Source: Candidatus Bathyarchaeota archaeon
GTDB taxonomy: Archaea; Thermoproteota; Bathyarchaeia; Bathyarchaeales; Bathycorpusculaceae
Direction of reading: 5' to 3'
DNA: 64,000 bases
NCBI GenBank assembly: GCA_963768425.1
Contig: CAVYHV010000028.1
Location: forward strand, 38,911-102,910
The notes under the pieces: model-generated
Told to the model about the DNA's origin: nothing
The model's database searches: none
What the model saw: only the letters and a program-made list of their open reading frames with translations
Part shown: one piece after another, positions 5,038-19,532 of the stretch
Position numbering within the stretch: the first letter of the stretch is position 1
Layout of the letters: each line of letters opens with the position of its first letter
Position numbers and translations under genes: made by a program

Positions 5038-5324
5038 GATTGCGCTCCACACACATTAGATAGCATGCGCTCATGTGCTTCTGTTAAGTTCTTAGGGCGA
5101 TAAATGGTTACGAAGTTAAACGTTTCTTTCATCGCTAATTTATATCTCTCAATAACAGCACCAAAGCAATTTCGTGAATAGTCGTCAAGTTTGCAGTTTA
5201 TTTTCAATTCAAAAGAAGAACCCTTTGTCTTGAGTTTGCGATTGAAAATATTATGATCAAGATTATGGAGATAAAGTAGAGTAGCCCAAAGACGGTTATT
5301 GGAATGCGATTAACAGCCTTTCCT

Positions 5325-5642
5325 TCAAGGTTCAAAATTGCCGCGAACAGCAGGTTCATTGCTTCTTGTTTGCCCTCCGCTCCTCTGCATTAGCAGTTCG
5401 TTTAATTTTTGTTCGAGCTGCTTGATCTTTTTCTGTTGAGCTATAAGTATACTAATCGCCATCGGCTCAAAGATTATAGGTTTGCATGCGCAGCTGCTCG
5501 CTGAAGCAAGATTTCTGCACATATCCATAAGTACATCAAAAGCCTGCATTTCTTCTTCGTTTGGCAGGCCGTTTCGAAAGTTTTTCCATCTGCCAATTTC
5601 GTCTTCCAGAGCCATTCGGTAAGAAGGAACAGTTTTTCCCAT
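5325..5642 (-). CDS. Conserved archaeal small helical protein (MGKTVPSYRMALE family, resembles the PolB2-operon accessory protein)
   Basis: MG.TVPSYR..LE.E...W..FR...F..L.D pattern; family assignment from memory only. Confidence 0.6.
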   Translation of the reverse strand: MGKTVPSYRMALEDEIGRWKNFRNGLPNEEEMQAFDVLMDMCRNLASASSCACKPIIFEPMAISILIAQQKKIKQLEQKLNELLMQRSGGQTRSNEPAVRGNFEP

Positions 5643-5790
5643 GCTTGCTAAGCCTCCAAGCAACACAATTTCTTTTCCATAGACTTTCACGCGAGCTATT
5701 GCCTAGAGTTAAACGCTTAAAAACAAAACGTTGAAACTTCATTTTGAAGCAGTGGAGAGGAAGCTGAAAGTGAATCTAAGTTTGCCAAGG

Positions 5791-6069
5791 CTAGGTGGGT
5801 TCAAGCGTTACTTCAACGATGCAGCCGGGCAGGCTTGCTCTTTCATCTTCCCAGAGGGATAATGTTGCCTTTTGGATGTATATGCGTCCGGCTTTTTCCA
5901 TTTTGGCGTAAAATGACTGCCAGCCTTTGAACCTGTTTGGGATACTGAAATTAACTTTTAGAAGCTGGGAAGGCTCCAACTTGAATTCCGTTATGATCAA
6001 TTTTGGAATTTGTACTCTTTCACTTTTCTGAAGTGTCCCTTTGAAGGTTACTTTTCGTGTTAACGTCAT
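5791..6069 (-). CDS. Tandem AbrB/MazE/SpoVT-like DNA-binding protein
   Basis: Two swapped-hairpin-like units (LQKSERVQIPK; MEKAGRIYIQK). Confidence 0.6.
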   Translation of the reverse strand: MTLTRKVTFKGTLQKSERVQIPKLIITEFKLEPSQLLKVNFSIPNRFKGWQSFYAKMEKAGRIYIQKATLSLWEDERASLPGCIVEVTLEPT

Positions 6070-6090
6070 GTATATTCTTCCTTTTAACTT

Positions 6091-6160
6091 TAAATTGTCT
6101 AATAGTGTCTGATAGTGTCTAATTTTGTCTTAAAGTGTCTAATATTGTCTAAGTATGACT
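6091..6160. repeat. Seven degenerate 10-bp tandem repeats with TGTCT core
   Basis: taaattgtct aatagtgtct gatagtgtct aattttgtct taaagtgtct aatattgtct aagtatgact. Confidence 0.9.
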
Positions 6161-6408
6161 CAACCTGCAGATGATTTAAGCTTTTCCACAGAAAAGCAAC
6201 CCAAAATACAAACAGAAAAATTTTGTGTCAAAAAATCTGCTGCGTGATTGTTGCTATACTACAACAAATTGTTTTAAGCGCTTGACTGCTTATGGATTTT
6301 ACTATCAGCCAATGAGAGACACGCTTGTAGGGAGAGGATGGTTAACACTTTATCTGCTGTCGGAGTCAAAAGAGGAAATTCTGTGTTTTCTTGCGGGTTT
6401 GAAGTTTT

Positions 6409-7347
6409 ATGAGTTCTGAACCTGAGTCACTTAAGGGTTGGGTCACGAGTTTCTGGGGGCACATCGATGAGCTAGTCAGCCGCTTAAAAATTGTTCTTGT
6501 TGCTCTAATCATCGGCATCGGGGTCGGATGGATTCCTACTACTTTGGCCGGGATCACAAACCCAGTTGGAACCTATCAACCCATGATTGCGCCTCTAATG
6601 GTGCAGTTAAGGAATGAGTTTCTTCCTAAGCAAGCAACTTTGATCGCAGGCGGAATGGCAGACACAGTGTTTGCAATGGCTTACCTATCTGTGATTGTTG
6701 GGATCTTGTTAGCTTCCCCAGTGATATTTTATGAAGTCGTAGCATTCATCAAACCCGCATTATACGACAACGAGAAGAGGGTTCTAGGGATTTACTTGGG
6801 CTCCTTCATTGGGCTGTTGGTTTTAGGTGTGGTTATGGCTTTCTTTGTTGTTATTCCAATTTCATTTCGAATCTTAATTTACTTCACTATCCAAGGAGGC
6901 GCCACACCGTCTATCTTCATCAAGGATTTCTACAACTGGATCTACACGATATTTGTTTTATGCGGTGTCTTCTACACCATCCCTATCTTCGTGGTTATGC
7001 TTATCCAGGTTGGAGTTCTCCCCGTTAAATACGTGAGCGGACGCAACAAAATCTTCGCTTACATCGCTCTACTGATGATATTTTGGATATTCGGCCCCGA
7101 CCCCACCCCTGTCACAGGCTTAATCATCATGGCGCCCTTCGTGGTGGTCTTCGAAGTCGCAATCTTTTTCGGCCGAAGAATCGACCGCACACGCAAAAAA
7201 AGAAAAGAGGCAGAAGCAACAGGTGGTAGTTATGGAGGGGTAAAAAAAGGTTTCATATCTTTCCCCAAGAACGCCTGCAAATTCTGTAGCACCCCCGTTT
7301 TAGACGAGGCAGCTTTTTGTCCTGGGTGTCAGCGGGCGATAAAATAA
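6409..7347 (+). CDS. tatC: Twin-arginine translocase subunit TatC with C-terminal zinc ribbon
   Basis: HIDEL..RL, FIKPALY.NE, PDP motifs, 6 TM; C-terminal CKFC...CPGC. Confidence 0.88.
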   Translation: MSSEPESLKGWVTSFWGHIDELVSRLKIVLVALIIGIGVGWIPTTLAGITNPVGTYQPMIAPLMVQLRNEFLPKQATLIAGGMADTVFAMAYLSVIVGILLASPVIFYEVVAFIKPALYDNEKRVLGIYLGSFIGLLVLGVVMAFFVVIPISFRILIYFTIQGGATPSIFIKDFYNWIYTIFVLCGVFYTIPIFVVMLIQVGVLPVKYVSGRNKIFAYIALLMIFWIFGPDPTPVTGLIIMAPFVVVFEVAIFFGRRIDRTRKKRKEAEATGGSYGGVKKGFISFPKNACKFCSTPVLDEAAFCPGCQRAIK

Positions 7348-7611
7348 GGCATATCTCTCAATTTCTTAACAGAAACCTAACAAGTCGAAGTTAACAACGC
7401 CCAATTTGCGTTTGCAGATTGGATGTTTCGGTTATCGCTGGCAAGGGCAACTATTTTCTGCTGGGGAAGCCTGAAAGTTCCTTAATCGAAGATCCTGCAA
7501 AAAAACCTTGAAACACTCAAGATGAATGATCATACTTGAAAAGTCAGTTAGCTTAAGAAAGTTAGATAATGATAAGGGTTGAAACCCAAGGTTGTTGAAA
7601 GTGGGGTATTC

Positions 7612-7716
7612 TTAATTGAGGGGTTGTGTCCTGAGTTCTAATCTGATGTTGTAAACTACTACAGCTATTGAAGCGAAGATTGCTGCTATTGAGGCTATAT
7701 CAATTATTCCAAACAT
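7612..7716 (-). CDS. Single-TM microprotein, 34 aa (MFGIIDIASIAAIFASIAVVVYNIRLELRTQPLN)
   Basis: GGTGA SD, own TATA promoter, paralog of 14236..14331. Confidence 0.7.
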   Translation of the reverse strand: MFGIIDIASIAAIFASIAVVVYNIRLELRTQPLN

Positions 7717-7758
7717 ATTTTCACCATTTTATTTTATAAGTACATACTTGCTCAGCTG

Positions 7759-7788
7759 AATATAAATATGGTTGTGATTTGTTCATAA
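7759..7788 (-). promoter_or_regulatory. TTATGAAC box + 14 bp + TATA, copy 1
   Basis: TTATGAAC AAATCACAACCATA TTTATATT on the - strand. Confidence 0.8.
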
Positions 7789-7885
7789 TATTTCATAAAC
7801 ACTAAACAACCGTCTAAATCCCAACAGAAAATTTATATGGAATAACAACCATTATAACATCAACTAAAACAGAAGGAAAAATAAA

Positions 7886-8122
7886 ATGAAAGCCTACATA
7901 CTCCTAAGCACAAAACCCGGCACTTCACTGGAAGTCGTCCAAAGATTAAAAGAAAAAGTCAAAGAAACAATCACCGCAGACGCCATATTCGGCCGATACG
8001 ACGCAATAGTAATATTGGAAGCACCAGCACTCGAAGAAATAAACCAAGTTGTTTACAAAATAATCGAAAAAGACCCCAACGTCATCCGAACAGAAACATC
8101 CATCGTGCTATCACCAATGTAG
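7886..8122 (+). CDS. Stand-alone Lrp/AsnC ligand-binding (RAM) domain protein
   Basis: KAYILL...FGRYDAIV...RTETSIV; no HTH. Confidence 0.85.
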   Translation: MKAYILLSTKPGTSLEVVQRLKEKVKETITADAIFGRYDAIVILEAPALEEINQVVYKIIEKDPNVIRTETSIVLSPM

Positions 8123-8216
8123 AAGCTAGAATAGAAGACAACCAAAACCCAATTTTTTCTTTTTTAATTTAAAAGACTATTTCTAGAAAAAATGTTGATA
8201 ACAAAATTTGAGGTTT

Positions 8217-8513
8217 TCAGCTCCAGTTGTCCTGGAGGAGCTTGGCCATTTCTTCTGGACATTTTGGTCCTTTGTGTGCTTTAAGAACGATGGAGCTAAC
8301 GGTGCTTTTTACGCCTTTTATTTTCATGATTTTGTTTTTGAGGATATCACGGAATTCTTCGATGTCTGCTGCTGATACCAGGGTTACGATGTCGAATTCG
8401 CCTGTGACTTCGTACAGTTCTTCAAGATGTTCTAGTTGGGCAAGCGAGATTAAGACATTGTCCATTTCTGGGGATTCTACAAATATGTCCACGAATGCTA
8501 ATAGTTTTGGCAT
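8217..8513 (-). CDS. Stand-alone Lrp/AsnC ligand-binding (RAM) domain protein, HKGPKC subtype
   Basis: LYEVTGEFDIV...IKGVKSTVSSIV; probable start MPKLLAFVDIF. Confidence 0.85.
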   Translation of the reverse strand: MPKLLAFVDIFVESPEMDNVLISLAQLEHLEELYEVTGEFDIVTLVSAADIEEFRDILKNKIMKIKGVKSTVSSIVLKAHKGPKCPEEMAKLLQDNWS

Positions 8514-8679
8514 ATTGGTCGTCTTGCTTATCTGAACATGAGTTCGGATATTTATACTTTTCTCGCCATGCAGCACAATTACTTTCATCATTGCCCTACA
8601 ATTGCACAGCAAATCAACTTAATAGTTGGACAATGTTAAAAAAGCTGCCGCTAACATTCTTAGCACCAGCGAGCTGAAC

Positions 8680-9170
8680 TCAAAATAGTGCATCTAACCA
8701 TTTACCGGTGAAATTACTGTAAACAGAAGGATAATCTTTTATCAGCTGCAAATTAAGTCTGCAAAACGTTAACGTATGGGCTGCCAAAAATCCAAAATGT
8801 TCCCTGTTGATTCTGATTAACAATGTTTGTTAAAGAAGTCAGCAGAAATACCTGTTGCGTTGCTTATTCCTGGAATCTGCGAATAGGCATCTTGAAGCGT
8901 GATGTCTGGGTCTACGCCTGATGCGGATGGGATCTGAGGTTTCGTTTCTTGTATGGAAGAAAATGGGCAGAGTGAAGTTTTGCGCTATAAGGTTTGACCC
9001 GACTGTTTGCCCGTTAAGTTTAGCAAGGTCGCCGTTTGCTTGGTTGGGAAAGAAAGCTTGGCCTATGCCTGTGATTAGAAACGGGTAAAGTAGTCCGCAG
9101 ATCAGCAGCGAAACCAATGCTAATCCGATGATCGGTTTGAAGTTCCATTTTTCTTTTTGTTTTCAGTCAT
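8680..9170 (-). CDS. kdpC: K+-transporting ATPase subunit C (frameshifted)
   Basis: GLLYP...[11 protein letters not shown]...[10 protein letters not shown]; last gene of the kdp operon. Confidence 0.85.
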
Positions 9171-9181
9171 GTCATTTTCTC

Positions 9182-11308
9182 CTAAACATGAAATACTCCA
9201 TGCGAGAAGCAGGTCGATTAGTTTGATTCCGATGAATGGCACGATAACTCCGCCTACACCGTAGATTAAAGTGTTCTTGAGGAACAGCGTCATGGTGCTG
9301 GTTGGTTTGAAGGCGATGCCGCGCATAGCAAGCGGAATCAGAAGCGGAATGATTATTGCGTTAAAGATGAGAGCTGACAACACAGCGCTTTGCATAAGAC
9401 CCAAATGCAAGATGTTAAGGCTGCTCAGTTGTGGAATGGCGACTGCGAAGATAACTGGCATGATTGCGAAGTATTTTGACAGTCGTTGGCGATGCTGAAA
9501 GCTGTAACTGCGCCTCTGGTCATCAGCAGTTGTTTTCCCAACATGACAACGTCGATTATTTTTGCTGGGTTAGATTCCAAGTCAACCATGTTTGCGGCTT
9601 CTTTTGCTGCTTCAGTGCCAGAGTTCATTGCTAACCCAACATCTGCAGCTGAAAGTGCTGGCGCGTCGTTGGTTCCGTCGCCAATCATGGCTACGATTCT
9701 GTTTTCAGCCTGCTCTCTTTTAGCTATTTTATATTTGTCTTCAGGTTTAGCTTGAGCAACGTACTCGTCGATTCCAACTTCTGCAGCGATGCTTTTTGCA
9801 GTAAGCGGCTGGTCGCCAGTAATCATGACGGGGCGAATTCCCATGATTTTGAGCGCTTGAATCTTTTCTTTGATGCCTTCTTTAAGCACATCTTTAAGCC
9901 TGATTATTCCGATAGCTACGCCGTTTCGCATGATGGCTATGGGGGTTTCTCCAGCTGCAGAAATGCCTTCCACAACTAAATCATAGTTTTTGGGAACAGT
10001 AGTTGACAGTTTTTTGATTGATTCAGGAGCGCCTTTCATAATGTCAATTTCGGGTTCAAGCATGTCAGCTTCAGTTTCTTCCAGCTGCAATAGAGGCTTT
10101 TCTTCGAATTCGCATTCGCTCTCTTCCTGACTTGTCGCCTTTTGGCAGGGTGAGACCAGATGTGAGTTATTTTTACTCCGCTTGTTCGGGTGACAGCTGA
10201 GAAGGGGTATACTTCTGAGGTTGCAAGTGAGTTTAGTTCTTTTGGCACGAAGCCTTTTTCGTAGGCAAGTTTCAGTATGCTTCGTCCTTCAGGGGTGTCA
10301 TCGTGCCAAGAGGACAGGAACGCTGCTTCGCCGACATCTTCTTCCGTGTAGCCTTCAAACGCGAACGAACTCTATGGCTTGTCGGTTGCCCACGGTGATT
10401 GTGCCTGTCTTATCTAAGAGGACAACATCTGCGTCTCCTGCGGTTTCTATGGCTTTGCCTGATTTTGCGATGATTTTGCTTTTGTAGAGTCGGGACATGC
10501 CTGAGAGACCGATGGCTGGCAGCAGGGCGCCTATGGTTGTGGGAAGAAGGCAAACGTAGAGTGCAATGAGCACTGACAAGTCGGCTCCAAGGCCAAGCGT
10601 TACTGATGTGCCAAGCAATGCAACTATGATTATGGTGAATATGGCGGTTAAGCCGATGAGAACCATGGTTATGGCAACTTCGTTTGGAGTCTTTGGTCGC
10701 TTGGAGGATTCCACCATCTTTATCATTTGGTCGATGAAGGTTTCTCCAGGGTTAGTTGTAACCTTCGCCGTCAAAGTGTCGCTGGCAAGACGTGAACCTC
10801 CGATAAGCGAATCTCCAGGCGCCTTCCTGACAGGGGCTGATTCGCCTGTGACAAGCGACTCATCAACCATCGCAATTCCCTCGATAACATCAGCGTCTAA
10901 GGGAACAATGTCGCCTGCTTCAATGTGGACCAGGTCGTCTTTTCTAAGCTCAGTTGATTTCACAGTCACTATTTTTCTAGTCCATTCTTCAGTGATTATT
11001 TTCTTGCTGGGCACTTCTGTTTCCAGTTTTCCGAGGCTTCCAGCGGTGCTTTTTGCTTGTTGCTCTGCAAGCGCATCAGAGAGCGTGCTGAACCAGACTG
11101 TGATTAGGAGGATGACGGCGACTTCAATGTAGAAGATTTGCAGGCTGGGGCTAGCTACTGGCACGAATGCTTGTGGGACTATAGCCATCGCTGCGACGAT
11201 GAAGAATGTGATTTCAACGATGAACATCACTGGGTTTTTGAGCAGAGATTTAGGATTGAGGCGAACGACAGAGTCAACTAGCACTTTTCTGGAGAAGGCT
11301 GACCGCAT
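9182..11308 (-). CDS. kdpB: K+-transporting P-type ATPase subunit B (frameshifted)
   Basis: KNPVMF, TGESAP, DKTGT phosphorylation motif, [19 protein letters not shown]. Confidence 0.95.
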
Positions 11309-11353
11309 TCCAGTGGGCGCCGATTCTTTGCTTTCTCTGAATTCAACGGGTTT

Positions 11354-13022
11354 TCATTGGCCAAAGCCGTTCACCAATCCTTTGAAGAATGATGCTATTG
11401 GTCCAATTGCCAGGAACGGGAAGAACGTCAACACCACCAGTATGATGATGCTGGCAACCAAGACTATAGTGAATATCAGCGTGTCAGTTTTTAGACCCGA
11501 AGTTGTTCCGCCGCGTTTTCTGCCAATCATTGAACCTGAAAGCGCCAACAATATGGCTATGGGAGCATAGCGTCCAATGAGCATCACGATGGCGGTTGCT
11601 ATGTTGAAGAACGGCGTGTTTGCTGAGGCACCTAAGAAGTCTGAGCCGTTGTTGGCGGCGGCGCTGGTGAATTCATAGAGAATCTGCGTGTACCCGACAG
11701 AGTTTCCACTCACTCCTATCGCAGATACTGCACCTGACGCGTAGGCTACCACGGTAGGTATAAGTATGATGATTGGATGAATAAGAAACGCAATCATTAC
11801 AAGTTTAACGTCGCGTCCTGTGATTTTCATGCCTAAGTATTCAGGGGTTCTTCCCGACATGAAACCGACGATGAAGACTGTTATTATAATGTACATGACC
11901 ATGTACATCATGCCTACGCCTTTTCCGCCTGGAATTGACTGAATAAACATGCCCAAGAAACCCAGAAAGTATCGTCAGAGGATGGTTTCCCAGTAAAGCT
12001 GAGTTCAGCGAGCCTGTTGTAGCGGCGGTTGTTGTGACAGTATAGAAACTGGACATGAAGCCGCCGAACCGGACTTCAATGCCTGGAGCCACCAAGGGAA
12101 GGGCTGGAATGAACGCTATGACTAAGATTTACTCCGAAGAGAATGTAAGCGCCCCACAGAAGCGGTCTGGATTCGGTTTTTTTGCCAATCATTTGTCCGA
12201 AAACAAAGATTAACGCTGTGGGAAGCAGAAGCATAAGAGAAATCATGAGGATGTTGGTAATCGGCGAGGGATTCATGAAGGGGTAGGCAGCGTTTGCCCC
12301 GTAGTATCCGCCGCCGTTGGTGCCTATTTGCATGATGGAGTCAAGAGAAGCCACTGGCCCAACAAAAATTGTTTGCGCGGCGCCTTCTATGGTTTTTACT
12401 GTGGTGTAGCCGTTGAGGGTTTGGGGTACGCCTAAGGCGAGAAAGATTATTGCAGCTATAATGGCAGAGTGGCAGGAAAATTCTTGTTATGGATCTGGTG
12501 AAGTCAACGTAGAAGTTGCCCATGTCTTTGGAGCCAACGACCAATCCGCGGATAAATGCGATGCCCATGCAAAGTCCCGTTATTGCGGAGGTAACATTGA
12601 AGCCATTGCAGAACGCCCATTTGGCTAAGATATGAAAAAGCGGCTTCGCCACTATAATGCTGCAGATCCGTGTTTGTTGCAAACGAGACTACTTGCATGA
12701 AGGCAAGGTCAGGATGTATGCCGGGGAAACCCATGGGATTAAGCGGCAAATTGCCTTGGAAGACAAGGATCAGAAAGCCAATAACCATCATAACAACGTT
12801 TAGCAGCAAGCCTGCAAGGAAGTACTGTTTCCAACCCATCGTCTGCTCTGTGTTTACGCCTGTGATTTTGTAGATGAAGTTCTCGATTGGATTGAATATT
12901 TTGTCTAGACGGCTTGGTTTTCGCTTAAAGACTCCGGTGATGTAGGGCGCTATAAGCCAAGCTAAGAGTATTGTTACTCCAAGTATAAGGATAACTGACA
13001 GCGCTTGAACTGCATCGATCAA
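11354..13022 (-). CDS. kdpA: K+-transporting ATPase subunit A (frameshifted)
   Basis: [44 protein letters not shown] filter motifs. Confidence 0.95.
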
Positions 13023-13074
13023 TTAATCCGAAACTCCAAATAACATTTGTGTTCACTATGGCTCCTATCCCCAA

Positions 13075-13362
13075 CTAAGTGGTTGATGTAATGTTGGTTT
13101 TTTCTTGGCACCTTGGTCCTTTATGAGGCTGCAATATTATAGTGCTTATGGTGCTTTTTACGCCTTTAATTTTCATGATTTGCTTCTGCAGAATATCTCG
13201 AAATTCTTCAAGCGTTGAAGTGCAAACTAGGGTGACGATGTCGTATTCGCCTGCGACTTCGTAGACTTCTTCAATGTTGTTAAGCTTTGACAGAGCAGCT
13301 AATACATTGTCTATTTGTGTTGACTCGGCGAAGATGTTGACTGAAGCTAAGAAACGGCTCAT
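13075..13362 (-). CDS. Stand-alone Lrp/AsnC ligand-binding (RAM) domain protein, HKGPRC subtype
   Basis: VYEVAGEYDIV...IKGVKSTISTII; GGAGG SD; directly upstream of kdpA. Confidence 0.85.
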   Translation of the reverse strand: MSRFLASVNIFAESTQIDNVLAALSKLNNIEEVYEVAGEYDIVTLVCTSTLEEFRDILQKQIMKIKGVKSTISTIILQPHKGPRCQEKTNITSTT

Positions 13363-13445
13363 TTTAAGCCGCCTCCATCAACACAACAGAACACATTGAA
13401 ACACAATTTAAGTTGTAACATAATCATCGATTCCGAGGAGAGTTC

Positions 13446-13547
13446 TCATGGAACCTCTTTGAGGTTCTTTCCTATTTTGATAAAGAAGGCTGAAAAATAG
13501 ACTGCTTCTTTTGCACTATCAGAGATTTCTGATTTAGAGTATTGCAT
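13446..13547 (-). CDS. Putative 33-aa leader ORF (MQYSKSEISDSAKEAVYFSAFFIKIGKNLKEVP)
   Basis: First ORF after the kdp promoter; AGGAG upstream. Confidence 0.35.
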   Translation of the reverse strand: MQYSKSEISDSAKEAVYFSAFFIKIGKNLKEVP

Positions 13548-13592
13548 TTAGAGCCTTCTTTTTCTCCTTTTAACATAGGGTATGGAATCCAT

Positions 13593-13622
13593 TATTTAAG
13601 GTTGATTGTGATTTGTTCATAC
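13593..13622 (-). promoter_or_regulatory. (G)TATGAAC box + 14 bp + TATA, copy 2 (RAM-kdpABC promoter)
   Basis: GTATGAAC AAATCACAATCAAC CTTAAATA on the - strand. Confidence 0.8.
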
Positions 13623-14144
13623 TTTCTTAATAATGTCATGAACATTTTGTGAAAATAATTGAAAAAGTTAGAAAAAAAGCATAGACAAAAGGAACAAACT
13701 TGAAAGTTTATTGGTTGAGCTACCTAAATCACTGAACGAAAAACCGTCTTCACAGCACTTTGTTGCGCCATTTTCCAGCATTCAAGTAGTTTTTGGCGCG
13801 TTTGTTTAATGCATGCTCGTGCTGTTCCACTGATATACCAGTGGGTCAGCCATTTTGGCAAAGCACTGTCCAATCTAAAAGGGTCAGGAGGAGCCAGGCG
13901 TTTGTCCGGGCCAATTGGAACTATTAAGGTGGAATTAGTACACGTAAAGATGTTTCAAAGATTTTCTTAGGATGGCACTTCTTTTAGACACCATATTTGG
14001 AAGAGGAAACTTTACCTCCAATTCGCAAAGGCGATGTGTTTAAATCCAAGAAAGATGTCGACTACAGCACATGTCCAAACAAATCGCAATTTCTCAGCCA
14101 AACGTCTAAGTTTCTAATTTATCTCTGTCACAGCTTTTTTGTTT

Positions 14145-14184
14145 TTCATAAAAGTTATGAACGATTCACAATTACATTTATATA
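14145..14184 (+). promoter_or_regulatory. TTCATAA-N3-TTATGAA palindrome + 14 bp + TATA, copy 3
   Basis: TTCATAA AAG TTATGAAC GATTCACAATTACA TTTATATA. Confidence 0.8.
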
Positions 14185-14235
14185 GGATGCTCTATCAATA
14201 GAGATTGTTCAATAAAATTTAAATCAGGTGGAAAA

Positions 14236-14331
14236 ATGTTTGGATTATTAGATTTAGTCTGGACATGCGTAATATTAGGGTCAATTGCGACGATTGGCTA
14301 CCAGATTCGTTTACAGCTAAGAATAAAGTAA
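14236..14331 (+). CDS. Single-TM microprotein, 31 aa (MFGLLDLVWTCVILGSIATIGYQIRLQLRIK)
   Basis: AGGTGG SD, own promoter, paralog of 7612..7716. Confidence 0.7.
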   Translation: MFGLLDLVWTCVILGSIATIGYQIRLQLRIK

Positions 14332-14634
14332 CGCCGTAAAATTCACGCCTTTGTTTACACCTCCAATATTACCATTTTTTATTGAAAAGAGCCAAAATAT
14401 GCAATGCGAAGCAGCATAAAATAGCCAATCTTTATGGCAGTTCGAAATGTTTGTGTAAGCGATGGCAAGGCAATAGACCTCAAGGTCATAGGCCGTTTTA
14501 GGTTTTGCTATAGGAAGCGCGTTGTTTTGTCCTCTTTTCTTGCACGTAACTAATTTTTTGTTTGTTCAACAAAAACATCCGTCAATGGTATTTTGTACAC
14601 TAATTTACTGATTTAACCAAAATACTTACAGTTA

Positions 14635-14674
14635 TTCATAATTATTATGAACAAATCTTAACCAAGTTTATATT
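14635..14674 (+). promoter_or_regulatory. TTCATAA-N3-TTATGAA palindrome + 14 bp + TATA, copy 4
   Basis: TTCATAA TTA TTATGAAC AAATCTTAACCAAG TTTATATT. Confidence 0.8.
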
Positions 14675-14716
14675 TCCTAGATTTGCTATGTTGTACTAAA
14701 AGTTCGGTGTTACTAG

Positions 14717-14854
14717 ATGAAAAAGGAAATGGAATCTCCAAATGTGAAAAAGACAAGCAGAAAGCACGTCGCATTACTCGTTAAAAAAGGGAAAAAAGTA
14801 TTTCCCGCTATTTCCAGCTTGCCATTTAGAGGAGGGAAAATAGATACCTACTGA
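14717..14854 (+). CDS. Putative Lys-rich 45-aa ORF upstream of the APC permease
   Basis: MKKEMESPNVKKTSRKHVALLVKKGKKVFPAISSLPFRGGKIDTY; GGTG SD. Confidence 0.4.
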   Translation: MKKEMESPNVKKTSRKHVALLVKKGKKVFPAISSLPFRGGKIDTY

Positions 14855-14888
14855 CTCTACAGGTGAACAAACGCAGAAGTCCCCGGCA

Positions 14889-16452
14889 TTGAAAAAAACT
14901 CTCGGCCTCGGAGGCGTTACGATAAACGCCATGGCCTTGATTGCTCCAGGAGCATTCTTATGGCTCACTTTCCAGATAAACGCAGCCCAGACCTCGCCGG
15001 CTGGCGCTTCAACAGCTAACGACATATTTTTTGGCCTTACAATAGCATTAATTTTGGCGTTCCTAACTGCCGCTTCTTATTCGTGGCTAGCACAACGTTA
15101 CCCCGATGCTGGTCCTGGCAGTTCGTATTATTTTGCTCAAAGAGCCTTGCTAGACAACGGAGCCAGCAACACTTCGAGCTAGAAACGCCAAGTTCGGTGT
15201 CGGATGGATTTCTCACCTCTACTACTGGGTTTATCCAGGGGTCATGGTTGCAGCAATGTCTATCCTGCTTACATGGATTTTATCTGTACTAGGTTTCGGC
15301 GTTTCTCCATTAGGCGAAATAGCTATTGCCTGTGTATTTGCAGTCGTTACAGGTGCTATAGCGTACCGCGGGATTCAAGGATCAACGAAAACGAACCTTC
15401 TTCTCAACGTAGTTCAAATCGGGATGCTTGTCGTCATCACTGGAATGGCATTGGCATTCCGTCTTACGAACCCTCAACATGTAAGCTTCACTTTCACTAG
15501 CCTTGGCGGAATAGTTACACCTCACGATATCAGCTTCGTGCTATTTCAAGCAACCATCGCTATCTTAGTACTAGTCGGATTCGAATCCGCAACTGCTTAC
15601 ACCGGAGAAGCCAAAGATCCCAAGGTCGTTCCAAAAGCAATCATCTTGTCATTGATTATTCAAGGAGCCTTCGCGTATCTGTTCGAGTACTTCGGAGCTG
15701 AGGCATGGATGAACTCCAGCTACACCATAACTTCTGGCGGCAAGATTTATTCAGGATTTGGCGCTGCTGCGGTCTCAAGCGCTCCCATTGGTGATATGGT
15801 TCGCAACCTTGGGAACGTATTCCTCGGAGGCAACGGCTTCACACTAGAGTTAATAATAGCTGCAATCGTGGCCGCTGCAATATTAGGTACTACCCTCGCA
15901 TGCATGAACACTGGTGTTAGAGTAACCTACGCTATTAGCCGAGACACCGAAGTACCTTATCACCTTAGCAAGCTAAACCCAAAATACTCTACTCCAGCGA
16001 TCGGGATCTGGGTAATGACCGCCGTTGCAGCCGCCATAGGATCTTTCGGAGTACTGACGATAACAAACCTAACATCTATTACGTTGCTATCTAACTTTGG
16101 CACCTTCCTGCTTTACGGACTAACAAACATTGTCGCACTGATCGCCTTCACTAAAGAGAGAGCTTCAATACTAAAACGCAGAGTAATTCCAATCGCAGGC
16201 TTCGCTGCTAACGCAGTCATGATGGCCACTATTGTGTACCTCAGCTTTGCAGGCGGAGGGGCTTCAGCATCAGAAGGAATCTTTGCTATAGCTGGCACGG
16301 CAATATGGTTGGGAATAGGGTTAATCTATTTCCGGTTTAACTCAAAATCAAAGCCTTCCGGTTTGTTTCCGTTCCCAGGCAAAGATGAGGACGAAAGCGA
16401 GCCAACGAAGGCTGTCAAATCCAGAACCCTAATGTTCTGGAAAAAAGATTAA
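14889..16452 (+). CDS. APC-superfamily (amino acid/cation) permease, split near 15180
   Basis: LGL.G...NAMALIAPG, YPDAGPGSSYYFA, GFESAT..GEAKDP; about 12 TM. Confidence 0.88.
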
Positions 16453-16740
16453 ACCCCATTTTTCCCTTTTTTGTTATATAAGAAGAATAACAATGCTCAG
16501 CATTTCCAGATTATTGTTGTTCTTCTAAAAAAAGCATTCTTGAATAGAGATAGTGGAGATGCAATCGTATAGGAAATCGGCTTTTCACTCCCAACTTTAT
16601 CATTACGGCTGTTACAAACCGCTATTGACTATTTTAGACTCAACCTACAATCAATCCAAAACCCATTTCAAAAGAGCAAACAAAAACACAAAAAAACTGC
16701 CAGCTTACAAATTAGGGGTGCCCTCTGTTTCACTGTTTAC

Positions 16741-16851
16741 TTATTTTTTCCTTAAAATTCTTTTTCGAAAGATGCTGTGCGGTTGTCCTCGAGAGTCCAG
16801 AATAACTTGTTCTTCAACATCTCGTTTTGTCTCTTTGGTAACTTTCTTCAA
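16741..16851 (-). CDS. Putative basic 36-aa ORF (MKKVTKETKRDVEEQVILDSRGQPHSIFRKRILRKK)
   Basis: TTG start with GGTG SD, directly downstream of motif copy 5. Confidence 0.5.
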   Translation of the reverse strand: MKKVTKETKRDVEEQVILDSRGQPHSIFRKRILRKK

Positions 16852-16893
16852 TTGTAACACCAATTCAAGTTTAGCAATCAAGACGTTAAAACA

Positions 16894-16923
16894 AATATAA
16901 ACATAGTTAATATTTGTTCATAA
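16894..16923 (-). promoter_or_regulatory. TTATGAAC box + 14 bp + TATA, copy 5
   Basis: TTATGAAC AAATATTAACTATG TTTATATT on the - strand, preceded by CTCTTAA-AAG half-site. Confidence 0.8.
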
Positions 16924-17009
16924 CTTTTAAGAGAAATAAAAATTATTTTCAATAAAAACACTAAACTCTAAACATATCATAATATTTTTCGAAAACTCAA
17001 ATCCAAAGG

Positions 17010-17933
17010 CTAAAAGCGACCGAGCAACAACCCGATCGAAAAGCTCAACAGCGGAGCCAGCACCCAGCTTAACACAATAATAAGAAACGGCTTAGCAGAA
17101 ACGAGCTTGGACTTGTAAGATATCCCTGCACCGAAAACCGACGCAGAAAGCGCCTGTGTGTTAGACAGAGGAATCTTCAGCAGGGTAGCCGCCTCTACAA
17201 GAACCGTGGAAGTCAAAAGAGACACCGTCGCATTCGGGTACCTCATTAGAAAAAGCTCCTCTGAAACCCTACGAATCTCACCGGCACTCAAAAAGAAAGC
17301 ACCGATGAAAATTGCAATCACAGCTACTAAAACTAAAGGTAATGAAAACCCGCCTGTGGCGACTATTAAGCCAAGGGTGTTTGCCCCCAACACATACGAA
17401 GTAGAAAGCGCCAGAGCTATAAGGATAATCTTGTAGATCTGCAGTCTCCGCCAAAAATTCTTCGGTTTACTTCTATTGATGATTCGCAGCAGGTAAAACG
17501 AGAAGGCAATGGCAATCAGAGGAGCAGCAACCCACATAAACGCAACTTCAGCCACATACATGCCGCTACTAAAAGCGCCCTGTGCAACAGACAAGCCTGC
17601 AAGCATCCCGACGAGCGACATGCTAACAGACATTGGCGCCCTAATCAAGTCGGCGATAATAAAAATCAATGTGGCGACAAGCAAAGCTTCAGCTCGAAAC
17701 TGAACAGCGCCGCTTGGCAACAGCAGATTGACTGTTTTTGTCATTCCTGCTCCTTGGGCAATAAGTCCTAGGGAAAAACCAGCGGCGCCAAGCAACATCC
17801 CGAACCGTTTACTTATTATTCTAGAGCCCACAGCGGGACCGACGCATGCAGACAGGTTGTTGCCTGCAACTAGCATAACTGCAACAAAAGTTAAGAGGAC
17901 AACTGCCGTGGAGAGCCAAATCATCAGGGTCAC
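17010..17933 (-). CDS. pit: PiT-family inorganic phosphate transporter
   Basis: AGNNLSAC.G..VGS and GANTLG repeats, P.S.TQ motif; follows a DUF47 gene. Confidence 0.8.
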   Translation of the reverse strand: MTLMIWLSTAVVLLTFVAVMLVAGNNLSACVGPAVGSRIISKRFGMLLGAAGFSLGLIAQGAGMTKTVNLLLPSGAVQFRAEALLVATLIFIIADLIRAPMSVSMSLVGMLAGLSVAQGAFSSGMYVAEVAFMWVAAPLIAIAFSFYLLRIINRSKPKNFWRRLQIYKIILIALALSTSYVLGANTLGLIVATGGFSLPLVLVAVIAIFIGAFFLSAGEIRRVSEELFLMRYPNATVSLLTSTVLVEAATLLKIPLSNTQALSASVFGAGISYKSKLVSAKPFLIIVLSWVLAPLLSFSIGLLLGRF

Positions 17934-18724: not shown

Positions 18725-19165
18725 CTATATCACTTTACTATATTCCTTCACGGCGTTGAGTGCCACCAGCGTGGTGGTTCTCTTGATGAATTTTTCAGTT
18801 AAGAGTTTCTTTAAGAAGGCGTTTAGGGTGGGGTTGTCTTGGAACTTCGCGAAGACGACCGCGTCGTATTCCCCAGTTATGTCGTAAACGGAGAGTACGT
18901 TGCCTTCTTTGGCTATTTGGTCTTCAACTTCTCGAATATGTCCGCCTTCGATTTGGATCATGATTATGGCAGTTAGAGCGTACCCCATTTTTGCAGAGTC
19001 AACGATGGGAATGTACCCAAGTATCACTCCTTTCTGCTCAAGGGCTTGCAGGTGATTATGGAGAATGTTTGGGGTTACACCTACTTTTTGAGCTAACTTG
19101 CGTAGGCTTAGACGTGAATCGTCTTCCAATGTGCGTATTATTTGCATATCGAGAGTGTCTGACAT
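18725..19165 (-). CDS. Full-length Lrp/AsnC transcriptional regulator
   Basis: DTLDMQIIRTLEDDSRLSLRKLA HTH plus YDITGEYD ligand domain; probable start MSDTLD. Confidence 0.9.
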   Translation of the reverse strand: MSDTLDMQIIRTLEDDSRLSLRKLAQKVGVTPNILHNHLQALEQKGVILGYIPIVDSAKMGYALTAIIMIQIEGGHIREVEDQIAKEGNVLSVYDITGEYDAVVFAKFQDNPTLNAFLKKLLTEKFIKRTTTLVALNAVKEYSKVI

Positions 19166-19532
19166 GTTTGTTGGGCTTTTTTTGGGTTTTAAGCCCAAAT
19201 TTCTCACGCCCCGTTGGTTTGCTTGACGTTTGTTTAGTAAATCAAGGAATATATAAACATCACCGCACGGAAATTGAAACAATGTAAACATTGTTGGAGT
19301 TTCAAGAGTGTCAAGTAGACAATCGATGTATGGACGTTTAACGAATGTACAATACTCAGTATAAACCTCTGTGCCGGTTAGACGAAGAGGTAACTCATGA
19401 TGGCCCACAGAGGAGGGGCTGAACAGCAGCGTACTGTTAGGTTATTTGTCATAAGCGCCCAAATCTTGAAATAAGCATAAAGCTTCAGGCGAAAACGAAG
19501 GGGGATTAAATTTTGGGCAACGCTCTTCACGA

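Follow-up and report, generated by a model that had tools for sequence, protein, structure and literature searches.

Two very small open reading frames (ORFs) stand on either side of the kdp potassium-transport operon in a 64,000-nucleotide stretch of DNA from a Candidatus Bathyarchaeota archaeon (GenBank assembly GCA_963768425.1, contig CAVYHV010000028.1, positions 38,911 to 102,910), and they raise the question of whether this operon is served by free-standing counterparts of KdpF or by peptides of another kind. The whole analyzed stretch is called the window below; it represents contig C28 in a genome of 33 contigs and 2.96 Mb. An initial annotation had placed one ORF at 7612-7716 on the minus strand and the other at 14236-14331 on the plus strand, and both are present exactly there. 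The first (MFGIIDIASIAAIFASIAVVVYNIRLELRTQPLN; 34 amino acids (aa), the coordinates including the stop codon) matches the family hidden Markov model (HMM) described below at E 1.7e-22 and is referred to as subtype A; the second (MFGLLDLVWTCVILGSIATIGYQIRLQLRIK; 31 aa, with a 'WTC' motif), recognized as an ORF and by the same HMM, is referred to as subtype B. We found that both belong to a conserved microprotein family whose genes share an operator with kdp, and that this family is bound up with a wider regulon, not with Kdp alone.

As had been proposed, the two peptides align without gaps. They are 45% identical, and one detects the other at E ~2e-4 when the whole 2.96-Mb genome is searched by tblastn; judged by this alignment, they are true paralogs. 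Contig C4 of the same genome encodes two further paralogs, giving four peptides in total, and a possible fifth at C6:157356 (44 aa, MRGMLDLAILG...) was judged unconvincing. Relatives were collected with an HMM built from the four peptides, and later from 20, together with six-frame searches. Loci were kept if the match ran from HMM position 1 to at least position 29 and a start codon was present, and duplicate sequence contexts were removed. A total of 54 distinct loci encoding 51 distinct peptides of 30-38 aa passed this filter, with start and stop intact in all of them. The reading frame proved to be conserved among these relatives: over codons 1-29, the Nei-Gojobori dN/dS ratio was 0.27 in frame; out of frame it was 1.47 and 1.15, and stops interrupted these two shifted frames in 54/54 and 32/54 sequences, respectively. 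Summed entropies of codon positions 1, 2 and 3 were 20.3, 12.4 and 32.2, the third position being the most variable. By these codon-level measures, the peptide ORFs are real genes under purifying selection. Two further family copies (L034 7940-8040 on the minus strand, and G100 C5:44196-44292), one of them upstream of a P2-type ATPase gene, were broken by a frameshift, and therefore occasional decay or sequencing error is present within the family.

A profile search against 1.84 billion representative proteins returned 37 clusters at E<=1e-3, all of them 30-69 aa long and visibly of the same family, and where a source gives them a name, it is 'hypothetical protein'. The peptides had been described as unannotated at the outset; it turns out that relatives have been called by gene finders, but the label attached to them in public collections is merely 'hypothetical protein'. 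No Pfam family matched either window peptide at E<=0.01, the family is without a name in Pfam and NCBIfam, and a search of the ESM Atlas with the family (best score 0.82, every cluster a 'hypothetical protein') gave no lead. In the abstract openings retrieved on KdpF in archaea and on small proteins, kdp or potassium in Bathyarchaeia, neither the microprotein family nor its regulon is described. AlphaFold2 modeled a single helix over residues 2-30 with a mean pLDDT of 89. A hydrophobic core at positions 7-22 is followed by a basic tail, and positions M1, D6, I13, S16, R25, E27, L28 and K/R29 are near-invariant. According to the positive-inside rule, this arrangement suggests a single-pass membrane topology with the N-terminus outside and the basic C-terminal tail in the cytoplasm.

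The strongest clue to function lies upstream of the genes. Each of the two peptide genes has its own Shine-Dalgarno (SD) sequence 4-5 nt before the ATG and its own promoter, as the initial annotation had held, and in both cases the promoter is a cassette of TATGAAC-N3-TCACAA, a 5-nt gap and TTTATAT located ~70-80 nt upstream. For subtype A, promoter and 5' leader occupy 7717..7800 on the minus strand, with the operator TATGAACAAATCACAA at 7772-7787, the TATA box TTTATAT at 7760-7766 and the SD GGTGA at 7721-7725; for subtype B they occupy 14156..14235 on the plus strand, with the operator TATGAACGATTCACAA at 14156-14171, the TATA box at 14177-14183 and the SD GGTGG. The generalized form, TTATGAAC-N3-TCA(C/T)AA-N5-TTTATAT, precedes the gene in 20/20 aligned peptide copies, and the occurrence of the operator at both window promoters is far beyond chance. 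What had been described as a TTATGAAC promoter of the peptides is indeed present at both, but the operator is also common to the kdp promoter: an exact copy of TATGAACAAATCACAA, followed by CTTAAATA, lies at 13606..13621 on the minus strand, 259 nt upstream of the first ATG of the operon. In addition, a scan for operator plus TATA box detected the cassette, with one operator mismatch, at 14646..14661 on the plus strand, upstream of the N-terminal ORF of an APC-family amino-acid permease gene (14889..16452, plus strand; Pfam AA_permease_2) that is split into two ORFs.

Throughout the genome, the exact pattern TATGAAC-N3-TCAYAA occurs nine times on both strands. Four of these sites are the peptide promoters and one is the kdp operon promoter; the remainder comprise a palindrome in front of another gene for a RAM domain (counted on both strands), one site before a short hydrophilic ORF, and one inside a coding sequence, which is probably a chance match. 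When up to two mismatches (<=2) were allowed and a TATA box was demanded, 13 genomic sites were found, vs 0, 1, 3, 3 and 3 in five shuffled genomes, and it is this relaxed search that adds the APC permease promoter. The operator (<=2 mismatches) lies upstream of the first RAM gene in 10/10 related kdp loci, 128-331 nt before the first ATG, and is followed by a TATA-like box after 4-5 nt in eight of them and after ~15 nt in the other two. Five other genomes contain the exact operator 2, 3, 6, 6 and 1 times, and the reversed pattern 0 times; the complete genome G003 has just two exact sites, one at the peptide promoter and one at the kdp promoter. The exact pattern is present in 83/120 genomes of the genus, including genomes that lack the peptides; there, with a full-length Lrp/AsnC gene immediately upstream, it precedes genes for an ammonium transporter (amt) and a CitMHS transporter. 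One such locus (L116 1616-7284, genome G014) has the order full-length Lrp, operator-amt, operator-CitMHS transporter and second amt, and therefore the operator regulon covers ammonium transport in peptide-less genomes. Many genomes of the genus have the same two operators at a distance of ~1.75 kb. As a functional link the common operator is stronger than flanking position, but what it indicates is co-regulation and not the role of a KdpF; its occurrence together with a TATA box suggests that the peptides are co-regulated with kdp and the APC permease.

Several other operator sites were observed. The palindromic one is a perfect 17-bp palindrome, TTATGAACAGTTCATAA, at C6:249437-249453 (L056 ~5438-5452), between a 99-aa RAM gene and a pyridine-nucleotide-disulphide oxidoreductase gene, an arrangement also found in genome G122 (L106). 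A small hydrophilic protein of 58-67 aa ending ...YFTHI is encoded behind an exact operator in L105 (G016 C6:558355) and L102 (G122 C4:133620); at the equivalent site of the source genome (C8:194767-194782, L055 ~5714) there is a 21-aa ORF ending YFPHV, which may be truncated. In the window, an operator-like site with two mismatches and a TATA box at 16907-16922 on the minus strand, between the APC permease gene and the gene for a PHO4-family transporter, is directed towards a 46-aa hydrophilic ORF (16741-16881), and may be a chance match.

Which factor might bind this operator? Its core, ATGAA-CAA-ATCA(C/T), is semi-palindromic and forms an imperfect inverted repeat of ~13 bp with a 3-bp centre. 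Sites of feast/famine regulatory proteins (FFRP/Lrp) from archaea are likewise ~13-bp imperfect inverted repeats with an odd centre, according to the accessible part of one source (PMC2715240), and the accessible part of another states that archaeal Lrp dimers bind imperfect inverted repeats of 13-17 bp (PMC2995911). The present promoters agree with an Lrp/FFRP-controlled type, which would combine an imperfect inverted repeat of 13-17 bp close to the core promoter with a neighbouring Lrp gene. The candidate operator binder in the window is a full-length Lrp/AsnC regulator with helix-turn-helix and RAM domains recognized by Pfam (18725..19408, minus strand). It is 39% identical to the full-length Lrp beside the operator-driven amt in the peptide-less genome G014, and has syntenic orthologs with 66-82% identity in seven related peptide/kdp/APC loci. 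The window also contains three stand-alone RAM-domain genes. One encodes a 78-aa protein that consists of the Lrp/AsnC ligand-binding domain only (7886..8122, plus strand; Pfam PF01037) and is divergent from subtype A, the left peptide. The other two bracket kdp: a 95-aa gene is the first cistron of the operon (13075..13362, minus strand; Pfam), a position kept in 10/10 related kdp loci, and another is located at its 3' end (8217..8612, minus strand; PF01037), where it is syntenic in relatives. The form of the operator and the presence of a full-length Lrp plus several RAM-only genes at one locus resemble the Pyrococcus FL11/DM1 system, an archaeal Lrp with a stand-alone RAM protein; the operator sequence, in contrast, departs from the optima published for archaeal Lrp systems. 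According to the part of the review consulted, hetero-octamers arise in vitro from a full-length Lrp together with a stand-alone RAM protein (PMC2995911). We infer that an Lrp-type regulator, modulated by RAM proteins, may control a regulon of potassium, amino-acid and ammonium transport that includes the microproteins; in the parts of the archaeal Lrp/FFRP literature surveyed, no such regulon is described.

The kdp operon that had been reported between the peptides is real, but it is on the minus strand and frameshifted. Its order is RAM (95 aa)-kdpA-kdpB-kdpC-RAM, and tblastn mapped kdpA (also recognized by Pfam as KdpA) to 11357-13022, kdpB (Pfam E1-E2_ATPase and Hydrolase) to 9204-11308 and kdpC to about 8704-9162, all on the minus strand. 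Compared with an intact ortholog, the window kdpABC genes carry ~18 one- or two-base indels in 4.4 kb; the TatC and PHO4 ORFs that flank the frameshifted region are uninterrupted. Both kdp copies of the genome, in the window and on contig C4, are frameshifted, and all four peptide genes are intact. The frameshifts fit real decay and assembly error alike. The C4 copy (L001 1-16161) is a second TatC/peptide/RAM/kdpABC neighbourhood, 88.5% identical over 8.1 kb to window positions 5308-13364, with an additional unit of peptide, 62-aa ORF and P2-type ATPase upstream of kdp; it may reflect genuine duplication, the presence of two strains in the bin, or mis-polishing. The kdp 5' leader is long (13363-13605, minus strand; ~230 nt from the operator/TATA box to the first ATG) and contains a 33-aa hydrophilic ORF (13446-13547). 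A riboswitch in this leader was considered and is unsupported by Rfam, which matched no family at E<=0.1 in window positions 7000-17500; at gathering score, L001 and L057 likewise gave no match.

With respect to distribution, the family was detected in 47/120 genomes of the genus, at 1-5 copies per genome. In a sample of the order, 17/147 genomes of the same taxonomic family were positive (15/56 in the genus and 2/16 in one sister genus), and the eleven other families contributed 1/153 genomes, with a weak match (E 3.5e-4) containing an internal TGA; the microprotein family is restricted to a single family of Bathyarchaeia. Related public records are mostly titled as Candidatus Bathyarchaeia/Bathyarchaeota archaeon metagenome-assembled genomes (MAGs), and one contig is filed under Acidobacteriota. 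This contig (L077) carries the 78-aa RAM gene, subtype P, a P2-type ATPase, subtype B and the APC permease, with 88-94% identity to Bathyarchaeia proteins, and was probably mis-binned. A search of sequencing runs with window positions 7400-14500 gave two DNA runs from peat metagenomes, with shares of 0.06-0.07, and no RNA run.

Homologs of the peptides were also found to be linked to K+ transport. KdpA (PF03814) is present in 51/120 genomes of the genus and is uninterrupted in most relatives. Cross-tabulation of the 120 genomes gave 45 with both peptide and KdpA, two with the peptide only (85% and 69% complete), six with KdpA only and 67 with neither, so that 45/47 peptide-bearing genomes have KdpA. 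Physical linkage is more telling than this co-occurrence. Among 85 peptide matches (from 86 rows, one of the two fragments of a broken copy being omitted), 56 lie less than 12 kb from KdpA. They comprise 32 copies on the same strand downstream of kdpA, mostly 3.6-3.8 kb away, 19 copies divergent upstream at 0.85-4.7 kb (13 of these within less than 1.3 kb), and five copies upstream on the same strand.

Besides kdp, the peptides keep company with other transporter genes, and subtypes differ in this respect (neighbour counts are from the 54 distinct peptide loci, many of which span only ±1.5 kb). Subtype A, with the motif …DIASIA.I..S…Y.IR.ELK, has the divergent 78-aa RAM gene 163-200 nt upstream, or 310 nt in one locus, in 28/54 loci; the pairing is also seen at loci without kdp and at one locus of the sister genus, and on the downstream side there is a convergent gene or none. 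In 7/7 subtype B loci, the same strand carries the APC permease gene 807-1162 nt further downstream; in 5/5 loci of another group, subtype P, the gene 507-554 nt downstream encodes a P2-type cation ATPase of 930 aa. Subtype C and a gene for a second type of APC are convergent in 3/3 loci, and about ten copies have none of the RAM, APC or P2-type ATPase neighbours. Neither operator-like nor TATA-like sequence was found in the spacer between subtype P and the ATPase gene (0/5 loci), and therefore subtype P is probably the first cistron of the ATPase transcription unit. The spacer also holds a putative 62-aa ORF (MEFKNIHEALKY...; L001 460-648, plus strand, and the equivalent place in L057, L071, L077 and L082), the nucleotide sequence of its 5' part being conserved across all five loci. 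The spacing of subtypes P and B could also be explained if the ORFs were cis-acting leader peptides or upstream ORFs, in which the act of translation, not the peptide, controls the downstream transporter genes: no promoter intervenes between subtype P and its ATPase gene, and the APC permease follows subtype B. However, the amino-acid sequence is itself under purifying selection, subtype A has nothing but a convergent gene downstream, if any, and the APC permease gene is preceded by an operator and a TATA box of its own; the leader explanation is highly improbable.

Is the family then a form of KdpF? KdpF (PF09604, 29 aa) belongs to the bacterial KdpFABC complex and, in the parts of two papers available to us, is described as stabilizing it (PMC12648545, PMC6255902). 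The statement that no canonical kdpF precedes kdpA was borne out: only ~52 nt separate the stop of the RAM gene from the start of kdpA, so there is no room for kdpF, and PF09604 is negative. In five whole genomes of the genus, PF09604 exceeded the cut-off in none (0/5) and had no match near kdp, and the control was above the cut-off in five named genomes. NCBIfam gave no KdpF match for 20 family members, and a PDB profile search gave no KdpF chain at E<=10. The peptides resemble KdpF in length (~30 aa; 31-34 aa in the window), in the predicted single transmembrane helix and in the tie to kdpABC, where the co-induction proposed here would be a further likeness. They differ from it in being free-standing under their own promoters, either ~3.7 kb downstream of kdpA or divergent upstream of the operon and not as its first cistron, in having several paralogs, some beside non-Kdp transporters, and in an acidic residue conserved at position 6 and a C-terminal tail that is basic and amphipathic, with no detectable sequence similarity. 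The suggested KdpF-like or transporter-modulating family thus stands as a new, conserved, kdp-linked single-helix family, but not with regard to a KdpF sequence relation or a place in the operon; by these comparisons it is not KdpF-like by descent, and a KdpF-like function is hypothetical.

A stricter version would make subtype A, perhaps also subtype B, a non-homologous, obligate fourth Kdp subunit that has taken the position of KdpF. The absence of canonical kdpF, the similar size and shape, the operator common to the kdp promoter, the presence of the family in 45/51 KdpA-positive genomes, and the fact that the commonest site, with 32/85 copies, is directly after the kdp operon would all agree with such a replacement. 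On the other hand, the peptides are never found inside the operon, the pair of subtype A and 78-aa RAM gene persists without kdp, subtypes B and P accompany other transporters, and a second type of kdp locus exists without the family (see below), so that we regard an obligate subunit as decidedly unlikely.

We tentatively favor, as a possible reading that falls short of probable, that the peptides are regulon-embedded single-pass accessory microproteins of transporters, with paralogs specialized according to their neighbours; expression and binding are predictions in this proposal. Each peptide would be transcribed from its own archaeal promoter, with the operator 5 nt upstream of the TATA box. 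Given that the same operator precedes RAM-kdpABC-RAM, the APC permease gene and, in other species, the amt and CitMHS transporter genes, the peptides would be produced along with these transporters. Control probably lies with a regulator of the Lrp/feast-famine type, with stand-alone RAM proteins as putative ligand-sensing partners. By analogy with known systems, the membrane peptides would most likely bind the co-induced transporters and stabilize or tune them, with subtype A assigned to Kdp, subtype B to the APC permease and subtype P to the P2-type ATPase. The proposed mode is that of KdpF, MgtS/MgtR and AcrZ, without membership in those families. In the available part of the source on these precedents, MgtS, MgtR and AcrZ are single-helix proteins of 30-49 aa that are induced by stress regulons and bind and modulate transporters of the same response, and the partners of MgtS include the P-type ATPase MgtA and the phosphate symporter PitA (PMC12648545). 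Among the neighbours of the present peptides, too, are genes for a phosphate transporter of the PHO4 family and for a P2-type ATPase. The present family differs from the bacterial proteins in that it is found in archaea, has no sequence relation to them and shows subtype-specific synteny with three classes of transporters, with which its interaction is a prediction.

Several observations weigh against this accessory role. The co-occurrence counts of peptide and KdpA are descriptive, as the genomes are related and shared ancestry is uncorrected. Not near KdpA are 29/85 copies, including 22 on another contig, four distant on the same contig and three in genomes without KdpA, and some of the kdp-unlinked copies adjoin an S13 ribosomal-protein operon, a CHASE4 histidine kinase gene, or TFB/thioredoxin genes. 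At the observed indel rate, the finding of intact peptides beside broken kdp genes is not significant; nor do the conserved residues cluster significantly on one face of the helix, 647/5000 shuffles reaching the observed moment. Moreover, the six genomes with KdpA and no peptide carry another type of kdp locus, RAM-RAM-kdpABC, whose KdpA is ~57% identical. At this second locus type there is no 78-aa RAM gene, no family peptide and no operator, and therefore Kdp does not generally need the peptide. Finally, a different hydrophobic peptide of 41-43 aa is encoded in 18/120 genomes, none of them among the 47 and several without KdpA. Its consensus is MLSxIIVGLSxIASAIGxLAxEIYVAKKVS..NLNHRNY (loci L120-L131, e.g. 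L120:1501-1626 in G010). The exact operator was found at 9/12 loci examined, with a TATA box and SD visible upstream, and four of the six KdpA-only genomes encode this peptide, on contigs other than the kdp contig. Homology of the second peptide to the microprotein family is unsupported (hhalign probability 0.85%), and the promoter cassette is common to both; therefore the microprotein slot belongs to the regulon, not specifically to Kdp.

Alternatively, the microproteins could be stress-induced, membrane-active peptides resembling type I toxins, which would depolarize or permeabilize the membrane in famine, the linkage to transporters being a by-product of clustering in the regulon. TisB and DinQ are operator-controlled type I toxins. 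The present peptides share with them short length, hydrophobicity, an operator of a stress regulator in the promoter and several copies per genome (here one to five), and they add a charged tail; many copies in unrelated contexts and the replacement by a non-homologous hydrophobic peptide elsewhere would also be in keeping with such toxins. Unlike TisB and DinQ, the family shows no conserved antisense or flanking RNA gene, because conservation ends at the stop codon in 44 subtype A loci, although an RNA that is unconserved or overlaps the gene would escape this comparison; there is neither an Rfam match nor a long structured 5' leader, and the subtype-specific transporter synteny is stable across species. 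A toxin-like function seems unlikely to us.

The RAM genes raise another alternative, in which the peptide is a signalling adaptor that either feeds back on a membrane sensor or tethers the 78-aa RAM protein to the membrane or a transporter. MgrB provides a model for peptide feedback on a membrane sensor. The tightest linkage of subtype A is indeed to the divergent 78-aa RAM gene, including in the sister genus without adjacent kdp, the conserved and predicted-cytoplasmic tail IRxELK could be a docking site, and a response regulator or histidine kinase gene lies near some copies. A divergent arrangement is, however, explained equally well by a common control region, subtypes B, P and C have no RAM partner and the interaction is purely hypothetical, so that the adaptor function, too, is improbable in our view. 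An extended form of this idea, which we consider very unlikely, is that the microproteins are adaptors that dock RAM-domain sensors, namely the 78-aa protein and the products of the two kdp-bracketing RAM genes, to Kdp as well as to the APC permease and P2-type ATPase. If true, cation and amino-acid transport would be under direct, ligand-gated post-translational control atop the Lrp-type transcriptional control, and archaea would have an equivalent of the plugging of AmtB by GlnK.

For a few bacteria there is ample documentation of small membrane proteins that tune transporters; archaea have hardly been explored in this respect. Our analysis defines a conserved archaeal microprotein family under selection, with paralogs that track Kdp, a P2-type ATPase and an APC permease. 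The significance of stand-alone RAM proteins was termed unclear in a 2010 review, in the part available (PMC2995911); the compact, sequence-specified regulon of operator, full-length Lrp and RAM genes offers a physiological role for them. It also shows how uncultured Bathyarchaeia of peat may organize potassium and nitrogen homeostasis without KdpF.

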